Origin: Escherichia coli
GTDB lineage: Bacteria; Pseudomonadota; Gammaproteobacteria; Enterobacterales; Enterobacteriaceae
DNA: 64,000 nucleotides
Strand: one strand, 5' to 3'
Assembly (NCBI RefSeq): GCF_003334355.1
Contig: NZ_QOWP01000007.1
Position numbers and translations under genes: made by a program. Each line of letters begins with the position of its first letter. The first letter of the stretch is position 1. The notes beneath the pieces were generated by a model that saw only the letters and a program-made list of their open reading frames with translations, was not told the origin of the DNA and did no database searches. Shown here one piece after another: positions 40,800 through 46,746 of this stretch.

Positions 40800-41612
40800 T
40801 CAGCACTCAACAAACTGATGCTGTTCATTAAGACGATAGCGGACTCCGGCTCGAATATTGTTTTCACCTTCAATGGCGACGGCGAAGCGAACTCTTTCGC
40901 CGTCATGATATGCCAGTGCGGCGCTTCCCCCTGGCCCGAGAATAATTGAGTCGACCACGCCCGTGCTCACTACCGTTGAATTTTCACCGCTGGCAATGAT
41001 GTGTACATTGTCGCCGCTGTTGGCAATTCTGGCGTTTGCGCCAAAGCTGGCGATTTGCGCCAGGTCACCATTACTGGCGACATGACACCGTTCACCCAAT
41101 GTACAAACGCGTACTCGCATTCCGGTGTTCGCAATCCGACTACTATCTCCAGCGCTGCTTATCCGCGAAGAATTACCGGTTACAGCAACCCGTGCGCGTT
41201 CACCGGAGCTGCCAATGTGACTGTTAAAGCCGACACTTCCAATCCGCACGCTATAACCCATACTGGCAATTTGCGCGGCATACCCAGCGGTTGCGATTCG
41301 GGCGTTATCCTCACAACAGCCGATGCGAGCATGATCGTCGCTGCGGGCAAACTGACTGCAAAATGGTATCTCTCCGGGGTCTGTGGCCAGTTTTTGCATA
41401 GAGGAAACTTCCTGATGCGCGAAGTTTTCATCCGCCAGCCATTTTTTCCACGCATACTCAACCAGACTCTCCGCCCAGTCCGTATATCCTTCCTCAATCA
41501 GTGCATGATGAATATCGGCATAACTACCGCCGCGTGGGAAATGGCGCAGGAACCAGCGATACATCACCGCTCCGATACGCCATTCTCGCAGGTCTGCTCG
41601 TGTAATGATCAT
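40800..41612 (-). CDS. ydhT: YdhT, uncharacterised protein with tandem 9-residue repeats (270 aa)
   Basis: Track ORF; about 12 tandem nonapeptides I-[AGS]-S-x-G-x-x-x-R; last gene of ydhYVWXUT cluster. Confidence 0.88.
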   Translation of the reverse strand: MIITRADLREWRIGAVMYRWFLRHFPRGGSYADIHHALIEEGYTDWAESLVEYAWKKWLADENFAHQEVSSMQKLATDPGEIPFCSQFARSDDHARIGCCEDNARIATAGYAAQIASMGYSVRIGSVGFNSHIGSSGERARVAVTGNSSRISSAGDSSRIANTGMRVRVCTLGERCHVASNGDLAQIASFGANARIANSGDNVHIIASGENSTVVSTGVVDSIILGPGGSAALAYHDGERVRFAVAIEGENNIRAGVRYRLNEQHQFVEC

Positions 41613-41615
41613 TCG

Positions 41616-42401
41616 TTAGTGCCGGTGATAGCCATCGACCATGCTTTTAAAGGTTTCGTGTGGCGTACGCCCCGTAGTGCAAAGATAAAGATGACCGAAG
41701 ATAAAAAAGAGGCTTATAAATGCCAGAGCAAAATGCGCCTGCAATAACCAGTATCTTACGCCAGGAAACACATCTCCCACGGCTTGCGGATAGAGACACA
41801 ACAGCCCCGTCAATAGTAACAACGGCAGCAATCCATACATGACACCAACATAGGCGACCTGCTGTAAGGGATTAAATTTAGACTGTGTTGTTGCCGGTAA
41901 AGGATGTTCTTCCCCCTGCATAATGCCAAACAAATAAAATCGCGTTTGTTTTGCCGCTCGTTCCAGCCACCCCTGACGACGAATGCGATAGTGGTGACCA
42001 TTATCCCCAACGGCATTGATCAGCACAAAGCCGAGCCAGCATGCCAGTAACAAAAATCCGCAAACTTCATGCACCGCAACCAGACTTTTAACCGCAGTTG
42101 CGCCCACCATCGCAAAGTGATTTATCAGCCCACTTGCCAGCAACAATACAAAGAGTAACGCATTCGACCAGTGCCATAATCTGACCGCTTTGCTGTAAAG
42201 ATAAACCTTCTCACCATGATCGGTGGCTGATTTCTTCACGCCACGAGCACGAAGCAAGGCGTGCAGCCCCAGCACCAACCACACCCCAACCAGCAATACT
42301 CCGGCAATGATCAACCACACCGGCCAAAATTCGGGAGTGAACTGTGGCACATAGTTCGCTAACTGGCTCTGAAACTGTTCAGCATGTTGCGACGGGTTCA
42401 T
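41616..42401 (-). CDS. ydhU: YdhU, PhsC/NrfD-like integral membrane subunit (261 aa)
   Basis: Track ORF; multi-TM hydrophobic protein with conserved His; start overlaps ydhX stop. Confidence 0.88.
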   Translation of the reverse strand: MNPSQHAEQFQSQLANYVPQFTPEFWPVWLIIAGVLLVGVWLVLGLHALLRARGVKKSATDHGEKVYLYSKAVRLWHWSNALLFVLLLASGLINHFAMVGATAVKSLVAVHEVCGFLLLACWLGFVLINAVGDNGHHYRIRRQGWLERAAKQTRFYLFGIMQGEEHPLPATTQSKFNPLQQVAYVGVMYGLLPLLLLTGLLCLYPQAVGDVFPGVRYWLLQAHFALAFISLFFIFGHLYLCTTGRTPHETFKSMVDGYHRH

Positions 42402-43066
42402 ACATTTTCCTTTTTAATCAAATGTTGACCGAACCGGCGATACAGATGCGGTTTCCCGGCACCAGGTAGCTGATATTGATAGTATTTATTATCCTGCAAC
42501 CACGCCTGAATTTCTGGGCTATCTTCGCGACCAAAGATCAATGCGTGTTCCGGACAGGCGCTGACGCAAATGGGCGGAAAGCCTTTTGCCAGTCGGGACT
42601 CAGCGCAGAAATCACATTTATCTGCCACTTTAGTGACAGGGTTAAGGTAGCGAACCTGGTACGGACAAGCGCCAATGCAATAACTGCAGCCGATGCACTG
42701 CGATTTTTCTACCCGCACGATCCCCTGCTCATCACGCCACGATGCCCCCGTCGGGCATACGTCGATGCACGGAGCATCTTCGCAGTGCTGACATGACTGG
42801 CGAAAAAAGTGATACTGCGTTTCGTTGTCGTTATCGGTGACTGGAATGTGTGCTATCGATAAACGGCTTCCCTGAGCGGGGACGTGGTTAGTTTTACGGC
42901 ATGCGCGGGCGCAAATATTACAGCCATTGCACCGTGACTCGTCATGAATCATGGCATACCGAACTTCCTTTTCTTGCCTCGTGTTCGCTAACAGAGAAGA
43001 CGCAGAACCAGTAAAAAAGATTACTGTTCCCATCCCCAGAACAAATTTGCGTCGAGTGAAGGACAT
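42398..43066 (-). CDS. ydhX: YdhX, Tat-exported 4x[4Fe-4S] ferredoxin-like protein (222 aa); track ORF trimmed
   Basis: Twin-arginine motif MSFTRRKFVLGMG; four CxxCxxCxxxCP-type clusters. Confidence 0.88.
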   Translation of the reverse strand: MSFTRRKFVLGMGTVIFFTGSASSLLANTRQEKEVRYAMIHDESRCNGCNICARACRKTNHVPAQGSRLSIAHIPVTDNDNETQYHFFRQSCQHCEDAPCIDVCPTGASWRDEQGIVRVEKSQCIGCSYCIGACPYQVRYLNPVTKVADKCDFCAESRLAKGFPPICVSACPEHALIFGREDSPEIQAWLQDNKYYQYQLPGAGKPHLYRRFGQHLIKKENV

Positions 43067-43129
43067 CTGATTATCCCCTAATGCAGTGGCTGCAACTGTC
43101 CACCCTATCCATGACATCTCCCTGAAATT

Positions 43130-45883: not shown

Positions 45884-45903
45884 GATTTTTTCCTTTGCAA
45901 GAT

Positions 45904-46530
45904 TCACACAGTAATATCTTTCCACTCGATAATTTTTAACGCCCCTGTTGGGCAGGCGTTTGCGCATTCACCGCATAACACACATTTCGAGGATTTTTTA
46001 CTTTCGGTATTTACGGTGGCCATCATCCACGGGCATGCCGTAGTACAGGCGCTACAGCCAATACAGCGTTTATGATCGACGGTAATACAGCCTTCTTTCT
46101 GCTGCCAGGTAATCGCACCAATCGGGCAGACGTTCATGCATTGCGGCTCTTTGCATTGACGGCAGGTGTCCGCGGTATAGTTGAGATCGCCATACAGGCC
46201 GCCGCCAGAGCCAACCCCGTTGTCGCCAAAGAAATAATTGCGATGGATTTTGATACGGGAGAAGAATGTCCCTACTGAGCCATCGTTGAAGTTGGTACAA
46301 GAGATTTCACAGCGGTGGCAACCCGTGCATCGCGCTCGCTGGGTCACCAGCACCCCTTTGGGGGTATTTATCAACCCTACTGTGCCGCTATCAATATCTT
46401 CCTGTTTGCAACCCAAAAGTGACAGTAACGCAGGGGCAATTGTTAGACCAGCAAGGCCTTTTCCTGATATACGCAAGAATTCTAATCGCGTTAAGCCAAT
46501 ATCTAATAGTGGACGATCAACCGGGTTCAT
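45904..46530 (-). CDS. ydhY: YdhY, 4x[4Fe-4S] ferredoxin-like protein (208 aa)
   Basis: Track ORF; four Cys clusters (CTGCHRCEISC, CRQCKEPQCMNVCP, CIGCSACTTACP, CVLCGECANACP); first gene of cluster. Confidence 0.88.
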   Translation of the reverse strand: MNPVDRPLLDIGLTRLEFLRISGKGLAGLTIAPALLSLLGCKQEDIDSGTVGLINTPKGVLVTQRARCTGCHRCEISCTNFNDGSVGTFFSRIKIHRNYFFGDNGVGSGGGLYGDLNYTADTCRQCKEPQCMNVCPIGAITWQQKEGCITVDHKRCIGCSACTTACPWMMATVNTESKKSSKCVLCGECANACPTGALKIIEWKDITV

Positions 46531-46732
46531 TTATTTCGCATCCTCTTCGCAAACACAGTGCTGACAATTCAGCAGCCTGATATTAAGCATTCAACTAATA
46601 CGCTGCTGACTCTGTCCCCAACACCAGATATTTTCCCTAACCCGATAGTGTATGAGAAAAGATTTAACGCCGATAAACTAATCCTTTATGGTTAGGAGAA
46701 AAAATAATGTGATTATTCTGAGCCCTTAACAT

Positions 46733-46746
46733 TGATCGTTATCAAT
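46733..46746 (-). promoter_or_regulatory. Consensus FNR box TTGAT-CGTT-ATCAA upstream of ydhY
   Basis: Perfect match to FNR consensus TTGAT-N4-ATCAA about 200 bp upstream of ydhY start. Confidence 0.7.

Follow-up and report, generated by a model that had tools for sequence, protein, structure and literature searches.

Among described enzymes, the nearest counterparts of the system treated here are the "Class V" (clade 41) members of the WOR family, which are membrane-associated, are predicted to face the periplasm, and make up more than 10% of the family, with no activity or role known as of 2026 (Putumbaka et al. 2026, PMC13328260). The Escherichia coli member named in that work is EcYdh, with YdhV and YdhY as its WorL and WorS subunits (PMC13328260). 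It is encoded by ydhYVWXUT, six open reading frames (ORFs) that share one direction on the minus strand, at positions 40800-46530 of a 64-kb stretch of E. coli chromosome (contig NZ_QOWP01000007.1), referred to below as the window. The operon, which is repressed by oxygen, has already been described, including its lack of a known substrate, and the locus does not differ in kind from the Class V systems: it encodes a WorL, a WorS with a signal resembling those of the twin-arginine translocation (Tat) pathway, and further subunits. From the comparisons described here, ydhYVWXUT probably specifies the E. coli Class V membrane-associated tungsten/molybdenum oxidoreductase, exported by the Tat pathway and linked to menaquinone. 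Beyond the Class V paper, the analysis adds YdhW as a third core gene, linkage to FdhD and TatC, the loss of the twin-arginine (RR) motif from YdhY, and predicted folds for YdhW and YdhT.

The catalytic subunit, YdhV (700 amino acids; ydhV, 43781-45883, minus strand), is a member of the AOR/WOR superfamily, matching Pfam AFOR_N (1.6e-67, residues 7-205) and AFOR_C (1e-47, residues 270-685) and scoring 1374 bits against the NCBIfam equivalog NF007354 (cut-off 868), with FOR, AOR, BamB, and WOR5 as its relatives in the PDB. It shares with PfAOR (1aor), FOR (1b25), and AOR (8c0z/9mqx) the AFOR_N and AFOR_C domains, a CxxCxxxC motif with a distal cysteine, and a nucleotide-free bis-pterin cofactor, and its partner YdhY resembles the Fe-S subunits of these strict-sense AOR enzymes. 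The motif, C307/C310/C314 together with C558, is the ligand pattern of a [4Fe-4S] cluster and aligns to the cluster motif of PfAOR; these four cysteines and a fifth, C336, are invariant in 18 diverse homologues (55-100% identity). What sets YdhV apart from the strict-sense enzymes is a divergence of the catalytic domains such that alignment to AOR enzymes at the sequence level covers the N-terminal domain only (approximately residues 4-230), along with the absence of any aldehyde oxidation found and a predicted extracytoplasmic location. In a manual alignment, Cys336 falls at the position of PfAOR Glu313, and the published analysis of the family has Cys336 as a metal ligand, the AOR second-shell residues as absent, and the clade as lying beside BamB (Szaleniec and Heider 2025, PMC12096430). 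Membership of YdhV among the aldehyde oxidoreductases in the strict sense (AOR, FOR, GAPOR) was rejected because of the Cys336 metal ligand and the lack of second-shell residues of the Glu313/His448 type. Thus, the family placement given in a preliminary description of this DNA, made from the sequence alone, is borne out, while a classical aldehyde oxidoreductase, given the BamB-like cysteine ligand, is not what the gene encodes.

BamB, the class II benzoyl-CoA reductase, is the characterized enzyme that YdhV resembles most in its metal site. Both have an extra cysteine ligand to the metal (BamB Cys322, YdhV Cys336), both are without the AOR second-shell residues, and BamB provides the longest profile alignment to YdhV among the PDB matches (profile positions 8-330). 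The two differ in metal and in setting, as BamB is a tungsten enzyme that sits in a cytoplasmic electron-bifurcating complex, whereas YdhV prefers molybdenum and has a Tat-exported ferredoxin and a cytochrome b as its electron-transfer partners. Similarity is low in domains 2 and 3 of YdhV, and no aromatic substrate is implied. A BamB-type class II benzoyl-CoA reductase was also rejected, the neighbors of YdhV being only YdhY, YdhW, YdhX, YdhU, and YdhT, with no BamC-BamI and with a partner, YdhX, that carries a Tat signal. Biochemical work on E. coli YdhV has established a bis-Mo-molybdopterin (MPT) cofactor with molybdenum preferred over tungsten and has yielded no substrate, possibly owing to a labile [4Fe-4S] cluster. 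The WorL subunit of C. somerae (CsWOR41L) was likewise inactive on 46 aldehydes (Putumbaka et al. 2026, PMC13328260). Both sets of negative assays, for E. coli YdhV and for CsWOR41L, were obtained with incomplete enzymes.

Two of the remaining proteins, YdhY (208 amino acids; ydhY, 45904-46530, minus strand) and YdhX (222 amino acids; ydhX, 42398-43066, minus strand), are ferredoxins, each with 16 cysteines in four CxxCx(2-13)CxxxC groups, enough for four [4Fe-4S] clusters, as had been read from the sequence at the outset. The groups start at residues 68, 123, 156, and 183 in YdhY and at residues 46, 92, 124, and 151 in YdhX. Both proteins match Pfam Fer4_11, and they are ferredoxins of different kinds: over most of its length, YdhY (437 bits against NCBIfam NF007382) is closest to the small subunits of WOR/AOR enzymes (8c0z_C, 9mqx_E, 6x6u_B), and the closest solved chain to YdhX is 2vpw_B (3e-34), the PsrB subunit of polysulfide reductase, with ArrB and FdnH also among its relatives. 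NrfC proper was considered for YdhX and set aside, as the score against TIGR03149 is 249 bits, below the cut-off of 377.6, and no nrfA, nrfB, or nrfD lies nearby.

The membrane anchor, YdhU (261 amino acids; ydhU, 41616-42401, minus strand), has a single significant Pfam match, Ni_hydr_CYTB (PF01292, 2.1e-31), and among NCBIfam models it scores 454 bits against PRK15006, 53 bits against TIGR02125 (HyaC-type), and 26.5 bits against TIGR01583 (FdnI-type). A phmmer search of YdhU against the PDB gave no match, so that its placement comes from profile hidden Markov models (HMMs) only. Across 26 sequences, four histidines (H77, H111, H223, and H237) never vary, and the protein has five hydrophobic segments. 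YdhU is thus a five-helix cytochrome b of the PhsC/HyaC/FdnI type that is predicted to bind two haems, a pattern expected of a di-haem b carrying electrons across the membrane. The initial characterization as a PhsC/NrfD-like anchor had conflated two unrelated anchor types, of which the PhsC-like one stands (PF01292, PRK15006) and the NrfD-like one does not: an anchor of the NrfD/PsrC type was rejected, no NrfD family appearing among the Pfam or NCBIfam matches.

These two subunits relate the locus to two further groups of respiratory enzymes. With PhsABC and PsrABC (2vpw), it has in common a Tat-exported four-cluster ferredoxin, YdhX, and a quinol-interacting anchor, YdhU, which matches the PhsC model. 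The catalytic part differs, being a WOR with a second ferredoxin, YdhY, rather than PhsA or PsrA with its cofactor of two molybdopterin guanine dinucleotides (bis-MGD), and the anchor PsrC is NrfD-type and haem-free, in contrast to the di-haem cytochrome b predicted for YdhU. With FdnGHI (1kqf) and HyaABC, the locus shares a plan in which the catalytic head is periplasmic and is joined by a four-cluster ferredoxin and a PF01292 cytochrome b with four haem-ligating histidines. Those enzymes differ in donating electrons to quinone, the similarity of YdhU to their b subunits is weak (53 and 26 bits), and FdnH has a C-terminal transmembrane helix, whereas the only hydrophobic segment of YdhX is its N-terminal signal.

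How these components have been assembled during evolution can be seen in a sample of 80 related loci, the best among at least 569 relatives, fetched with a YdhV profile and searched with the six Ydh proteins. Nearly every locus with YdhV also encodes YdhY and YdhW; a YdhW homologue occurs in 76 of the 80 loci, mostly adjoining ydhV or ydhY, across Enterobacterales, Telmatospirillum, Cetobacterium, many Bacillota, Spirochaetota, Eggerthellaceae, Desulfobacterota, and Nitrospirota. YdhY-YdhV-YdhW is therefore a near-universal core. True YdhX and YdhU occur only in Enterobacterales and Telmatospirillum and are a proteobacterial add-on, and YdhT is found only in Enterobacterales. Outside the Enterobacterales, where at least 2.5 kb of sequence is available downstream of ydhV, fdhD is present in 22 and tatC in 19 of 45 loci. 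The tatC gene mostly follows directly on the three core genes, and a frequent order is Y-V-W-FdhD-TatC, sometimes with tupAB, moeA, or moaA in addition. FdhD is a sulfurtransferase that sulfurates the cofactor of formate dehydrogenase.

The same sample bears on how the enzyme reaches the membrane. YdhX carries a Tat signal, TRRKFV at residue 4 (sequence TRRKFVLGMGTVIFFTGSASSLLA), that had been recognized at the outset; its RR motif is retained by all 23 orthologues examined. YdhY of E. coli begins with a degenerate Tat-like motif, TRLEFLR, in which the second arginine is absent, followed by a hydrophobic h-region; this signal, which goes beyond the preliminary description, departs from the canonical Tat motif. 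All 52 YdhY homologues from loci without YdhX have [ST]RRxFLK, and all 23 from loci with YdhX have TRLEFLR, SRLEFLR, or TRQEFLR instead. The hydrophobic region of E. coli YdhY ends in a lipobox-like LLGC41, with lysine as residue +2; L[FLIM]GC is present in 23 of 23 proteobacterial homologues and in 21 of the 52 others, the rest being without the lipobox cysteine and several of them alanine-rich there. From these motifs the enzyme can be read as ancestrally Tat-exported and, probably, as often lipid-anchored. YdhY has lost its RR in the lineage that acquired the quinol module, which may reflect a shift to export dependent on assembly with YdhX. A location on the periplasmic side is thus supported by the TRRKFV of YdhX, the RR of YdhY homologues, the linkage to tatC, and the prediction in the literature.

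Other arrangements were also seen in the sample. Two loci, from metagenome-assembled genomes of Syntrophaceae (L071, 2030-5572) and Nitrospiraceae (L074, 8452-12657), have a YdhU-like gene between ydhY and ydhV, have no YdhX, and encode a YdhY that keeps its RR. In this arrangement, apparently a simpler wiring, YdhY may dock directly on the cytochrome b. In several loci of Bacillota and Spirochaetota (L031-L034, L038, L024, L025, L045, and L075), Y-V(-W) keeps other company: right after ydhV, some encode a polyferredoxin of about 380 amino acids anchored in the membrane, and in others a nearby gene specifies a fusion of an NDH-2-like flavoprotein to a membrane domain, which suggests that these may be alternative electron-input modules. 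Three contigs of Bacillota (L034, L050, and L067) carry two YdhV paralogues within a few kilobases.

A working model of the E. coli enzyme can be assembled from these features. YdhV and YdhY would form a conserved catalytic pair that is loaded with cofactor in the cytoplasm with the help of YdhW, possibly also requiring sulfuration of the FdhD type, and the folded pair would then be exported by the Tat pathway to the periplasmic face of the membrane. Because YdhY of E. coli has lost the second arginine, its export would probably proceed through assembly with YdhX or through the weakened signal of YdhY itself. Once exported, YdhV-YdhY would dock through YdhX onto YdhU and so connect to menaquinone, giving a predicted chain from the two haems b of YdhU through the four clusters of YdhX and the four of YdhY to the YdhV cluster and the molybdenum. 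The anaerobic, quinol-linked redox module that the preliminary description had proposed is upheld in outline by the family placements, YdhV falling by profile HMM in the AOR family and YdhU in the PhsC cytochrome b family. None of the outcomes that the preliminary description had named as refuting it was encountered.

The promoter of the operon places this system under anaerobic control. An FNR site of the class II activator type, TTGATAACGATCAA, lies at 46732-46745 on the minus strand and is the only perfect TTGAT-N4-ATCAA in the window (0.12 expected), as already noted from the sequence; its center is 208.5 nt 5' of the ydhY ATG. Thirteen further loci from Escherichia and Citrobacter, or 14 with L001, a near-identical E. 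coli record fetched for the ydh region, have a perfect FNR box at a distance of 198-241 nt upstream of ydhY. Chromatin immunoprecipitation sequencing (ChIP-seq) has shown an FNR peak at the ydh promoter, with the site at -42.5 and FNR-dependent expression (PMC3688515), so that the suspected dependence on FNR is an experimental result and the ydhY promoter is a class II FNR-activated one with respect to both position and dependence. The published -42.5 spacing and the sequence together point to cATTATt (46703-46709, minus strand) as the -10 element, to a transcription start near 46696, and hence to a 5' leader of approximately 165 nt (46531-46695, minus strand). No Rfam family matched 40000-48000 at E <= 1, and so there is no riboswitch, of the molybdenum cofactor (Moco) type or any other, in this leader, and the predicted fold of the leader is only slightly more stable than that of shuffled sequence (z = -1.89), which is unconvincing. 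Most of the leaders aligned from Escherichia and Citrobacter share conserved blocks, namely a Fur-like box, a 7-2-7 pair, and the ribosome-binding region. In vitro, the ydhY promoter is preferred by RNA polymerase carrying sigma-S.

The 7-2-7 pair is an inverted pair of heptamers, TAACCAT-AA-AGGATTA (46679-46694, minus strand), just downstream of the predicted start at about +3 to +18, and nothing else in the window fits the relaxed pattern TAMYYMT-NN-AKRRKTA (0.02 expected). The ydh promoter contains no copy of the strict NarL heptamer TACYYMT. The pair is kept in most of the aligned leaders, the second heptamer being absent in L012. Control of ydhYVWXUT by NarL/NarP is reportedly a result of Partridge in 2008, as that work is described in papers citing it. 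From its sequence and position, the pair is a likely candidate for a NarL/NarP operator.

Upstream of these elements, and absent from the preliminary description, is a sequence resembling a Fur box, AATGATAATAAATATC (46780-46795, minus strand), that agrees with the Fur consensus core at 14 of 16 positions. Escherichia and Citrobacter both conserve it, and the FNR site lies approximately 50 nt downstream of it. Matches of this quality number three in the window (0.05 expected), the other two overlapping one another at 56484-56502, directly upstream of sufA (56072-56440, minus strand; sufB, 54576-56102). The suf operon is Fur-regulated, and we take this pair of matches to be, most likely, the Fur site of sufA; they serve here as a positive control for the pattern. 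Fur gives a ChIP peak at the ydh operon, which is a direct and conserved Fur target (PMC7157518, PMC10164565), and we infer that AATGATAATAAATATC is the Fur site.

A central question for an enzyme of this architecture is the direction in which electrons pass through it. Flow from quinol to substrate is the most likely direction, held with slightly better than even confidence. It is favored because YdhX is nearest to PsrB, NrfC, TtrB, and DsrO of quinol-oxidizing reductases, because BamB, the nearest characterized relative of YdhV, is a reductase, because YdhV prefers molybdenum, and because no aldehyde oxidation has been seen. It is favored also because activation by FNR with NarL/NarP control is the pattern of a minor terminal reductase, matching dmsABC and frdABCD. 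On this reading, the complex would be an anaerobic respiratory reductase that uses an acceptor other than an aldehyde, located outside the cytoplasm, and is active when nitrate and nitrite are absent.

Several considerations weigh against both this assignment and the broader model. The same regulatory pattern is common to uptake hydrogenases, which donate electrons, and di-haem b anchors also occur in the donor enzymes Fdn-N and Hyd-1. The clade has yet to yield a measured activity from any of its members, so that direction and substrate are both inferred. Export of the E. coli enzyme is predicted only, as TRLEFLR of YdhY is without the second arginine, and the correlation between loss of RR and presence of YdhX probably represents a single evolutionary event, not 23 independent ones. 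The locus sample takes in only 80 loci, the best among relatives that number at least 569, and depended on naive ORF calling, which failed on some high-GC contigs. Finally, the tandem winged-helix fold modeled for YdhW is typical of DNA-binding proteins and is unlike every known redox-enzyme maturation protein.

The opposite direction of flow would make the complex a periplasmic dehydrogenase, in which YdhV oxidizes a low-potential donor, aldehyde-like or otherwise organic, and YdhU passes the electrons to menaquinone at the cytoplasmic side in a redox loop like those of Fdn-N and Hyd-1. Characterized members of the AOR/WOR superfamily do mostly oxidize aldehydes, and YdhU, with its four invariant histidines, shares a Pfam family with FdnI and HyaC. 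Regulation can be read in the same way, since ydhY and hya shared a preference for sigma-S in one study, and hya and hyb are also nitrate-repressed. The catalytic subunit fits this less well: no aldehyde oxidation was found with E. coli YdhV or with CsWOR41L on 46 aldehydes, evidence weakened by the incompleteness of both enzymes, and YdhV is without the AOR second-shell residues and has a cysteine ligand like that of the reductase BamB (PMC12096430). In addition, YdhX scores higher against reductase-type Fe-S subunits than against FdnH or HybA. A dehydrogenase is judged unlikely, at roughly one chance in four, and the candidate aldehydes proposed at the outset as a growth and metabolite screen are a weak lead, given the purified relative's inactivity on 46 of them.

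A reductase of sulfur compounds, of the thiosulfate or polysulfide type, is a further alternative and an improbable one. It draws on the RefSeq name of ydhU, phsC ("thiosulfate reductase cytochrome B subunit"), on its placement by KEGG in sulfur metabolism, on its score of 454 bits against PRK15006, and on the proximity of YdhX to PsrB of polysulfide reductase. A reuterin screen groups ydhU with cysIJ, through KEGG mapping only, and the sulfurtransferase FdhD is genomically linked in other phyla. The name phsC, however, comes from a family model, not from experiment, and FdhD sulfurates cofactors and is uninformative on the substrate. Moreover, the locus has no catalytic subunit of the PhsA/PsrA type with bis-MGD, its catalytic subunit being a WOR, and no thiosulfate phenotype was found in the accessible literature. 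Other mentions of the operon in the literature (reuterin, solvent tolerance, YcjW, FrmR) yielded no clue to the substrate.

The third core protein, YdhW (215 amino acids; ydhW, 43130-43777, minus strand), presents a different problem. Neither it nor YdhT had been credited with a recognizable catalytic motif in the preliminary description, and both were indeed without a match in the Pfam-A library used and without a relative among PDB sequences; newer Pfam releases list the two as families of their own, PF27264 and PF27195. The YdhW family comprises 521 clusters at 50% identity and is acidic throughout (median pI 4.68). An AlphaFold2 model built from a 57-sequence alignment has a mean pLDDT of 92.7 and shows two winged-helix units (approximately residues 41-105 and 125-191) and a C-terminal helix; some family members have 3-4 repeats or a membrane segment. 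Foldseek comparison of YdhW with AFDB50 returned only its own uncharacterized family, one AFDB homologue being labeled "PpiC domain-containing protein". No signal-peptide-like N-terminus was found in the YdhW sequences sampled (15 of the 57 aligned homologues). In two homologues (P0299 and P0304), the N-terminus contains RRR[FL]L, reminiscent of a Tat n-region, with no hydrophobic h-region.

The role proposed for YdhW is that of the missing maturation or assembly chaperone of YdhV and YdhY, with gene context as its basis. It is supported by the near-universal association of the genes, the lack of a signal peptide in the sequences sampled, the acidity, the confident model, the PpiC label of one AFDB homologue, and a gap in what is known of the enzyme, as no Moco chaperone has been identified for YdhV according to the Leimkühler laboratory (PMC9103625). 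The proposed role is like that of TorD, DmsD, NarJ, NapD, and FdhE, each a dedicated cytoplasmic partner beside a Tat-exported cofactor enzyme. The likeness would end there, as the tandem winged-helix model has no match in sequence or structure to those families, and YdhW as a chaperone of the all-helical TorD/DmsD/NarJ type (PF02613) was rejected on the same grounds. Given the winged-helix fold, YdhW might instead be a local transcription regulator of the operon and not a maturation factor at all. This is a poor prospect in view of the acidity of the family, which made a DNA-binding regulator unlikely and led to its rejection.

If YdhW does act in maturation, the observations can be drawn together into a more inclusive proposal, in which YdhY-YdhV-YdhW is a widespread Tat-exported respiratory reductase of a non-aldehyde extracellular acceptor, activated by FdhD and YdhW, and dependent on YdhX for export where the quinol module is present. 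This proposal is doubtful as a whole. Its cysteine-ligated Mo/W-bis-MPT site would be activated by sulfuration of the FdhD type and by YdhW, acting as a maturation or Tat-proofreading chaperone of a new class outside the TorD family. Published assays would have been negative since YdhW, YdhY, and FdhD were left out of them, and export that came to depend on the signal of YdhX after the gain of YdhX and YdhU would explain the decay of RR to RL or RQ in YdhY.

That the operon is a poorly expressed relic without current function in E. coli, as might be argued from a study of MG1655 in which, under the conditions used, its mRNA was too scarce to be detected and from the lack of any known phenotype or activity, is very improbable in view of its presence in 5425 of 5426 complete E. 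coli genomes at 95% identity or more, the 92% identity of YdhV in Citrobacter and 55-60% in Clostridia, the intactness of all cofactor ligands, the conservation of the FNR site across genera, and FNR-dependent expression (PMC3688515). Coverage reaches at least 80% of the region in 5394 of these genomes, and the sequence at 40700-46800 is 100% identical to that of E. coli VL40. There are 5431 matching places for the region in all, 2 of them on records classed as plasmids, and one genome has two copies.

At the level of the locus, the six genes are as tightly packed and co-oriented as first reported, with intergenic gaps, in order from ydhY to ydhT, of 20, 3, 63, -4, and 3 nt; the start of ydhU overlaps the stop of ydhX by 4 nt. 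RefSeq names them ydhY, ydhV, ydhW, ydhX, phsC (ydhU), and ydhT, and annotates the convergent ydhS on one side and fumD (ydhZ) with pykF on the other. A strong terminator-like hairpin (46953-46981) lies downstream of fumD, and hence ydhY has its own control region. Translation starts are open to choice in three of the genes. For ydhV, 45883 or 45967 could be used, the latter giving a 728-residue ORF overlapping ydhY, and a form of that length is annotated in Citrobacter (P0169); it was rejected here, as alignment to the N-termini of AOR enzymes and the spacing of the ribosome-binding site favor 45883. For ydhX, homology and ribosome-binding-site spacing favor 43066 over 43117, and for ydhW spacing favors 43768 over 43777.

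At the other end of the operon, ydhS (plus strand, ending at 40788) converges on ydhT (minus strand, ending at 40800) with 11 nt between the stop codons, and therefore any terminator must lie inside the opposite gene. The ydhS/ydhT pair is a candidate excludon from RNA-seq (PMC12288877). The ydhS gene is an intact ORF of 534 amino acids here (39184-40788), and the VL40 copy is a RefSeq pseudogene with an internal stop (L001, 985-2589), so that the window comes from a strain other than VL40 despite the identity of their ydh regions. YdhT itself (270 amino acids; ydhT, 40800-41612, minus strand) is predicted to start with a helical domain and to end in a beta domain, in addition to a beta-solenoid whose repeat unit is 9 residues long; among the loci sampled it is a late accessory restricted to Enterobacterales.

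The ydhYVWXUT operon is one of the last molybdoenzyme systems of E. coli without a known reaction. Promoter, cofactor, and phylogeny have all been published, so that the system is unsolved rather than under-described, as it had been called; that its physiological substrate was unresolved is as true in 2026 as when it was first noted (Putumbaka et al., PMC13328260). The incremental value of the present analysis is in the core triad, the linkage to FdhD and TatC, the degenerate signal of YdhY, and two fold predictions. Of these, the core status of YdhW, the FdhD/TatC linkage, and the YdhY signal are reasons why earlier biochemistry may have failed. Class V catalytic subunits form more than 10% of the WOR family, which is common in human gut anaerobes (PMC13328260). 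The substrate, once found, would put a further pathway, respiratory or for detoxification, on the map of E. coli and would define the chemistry of a cysteine-ligated bis-MPT site outside benzoyl-CoA reduction.

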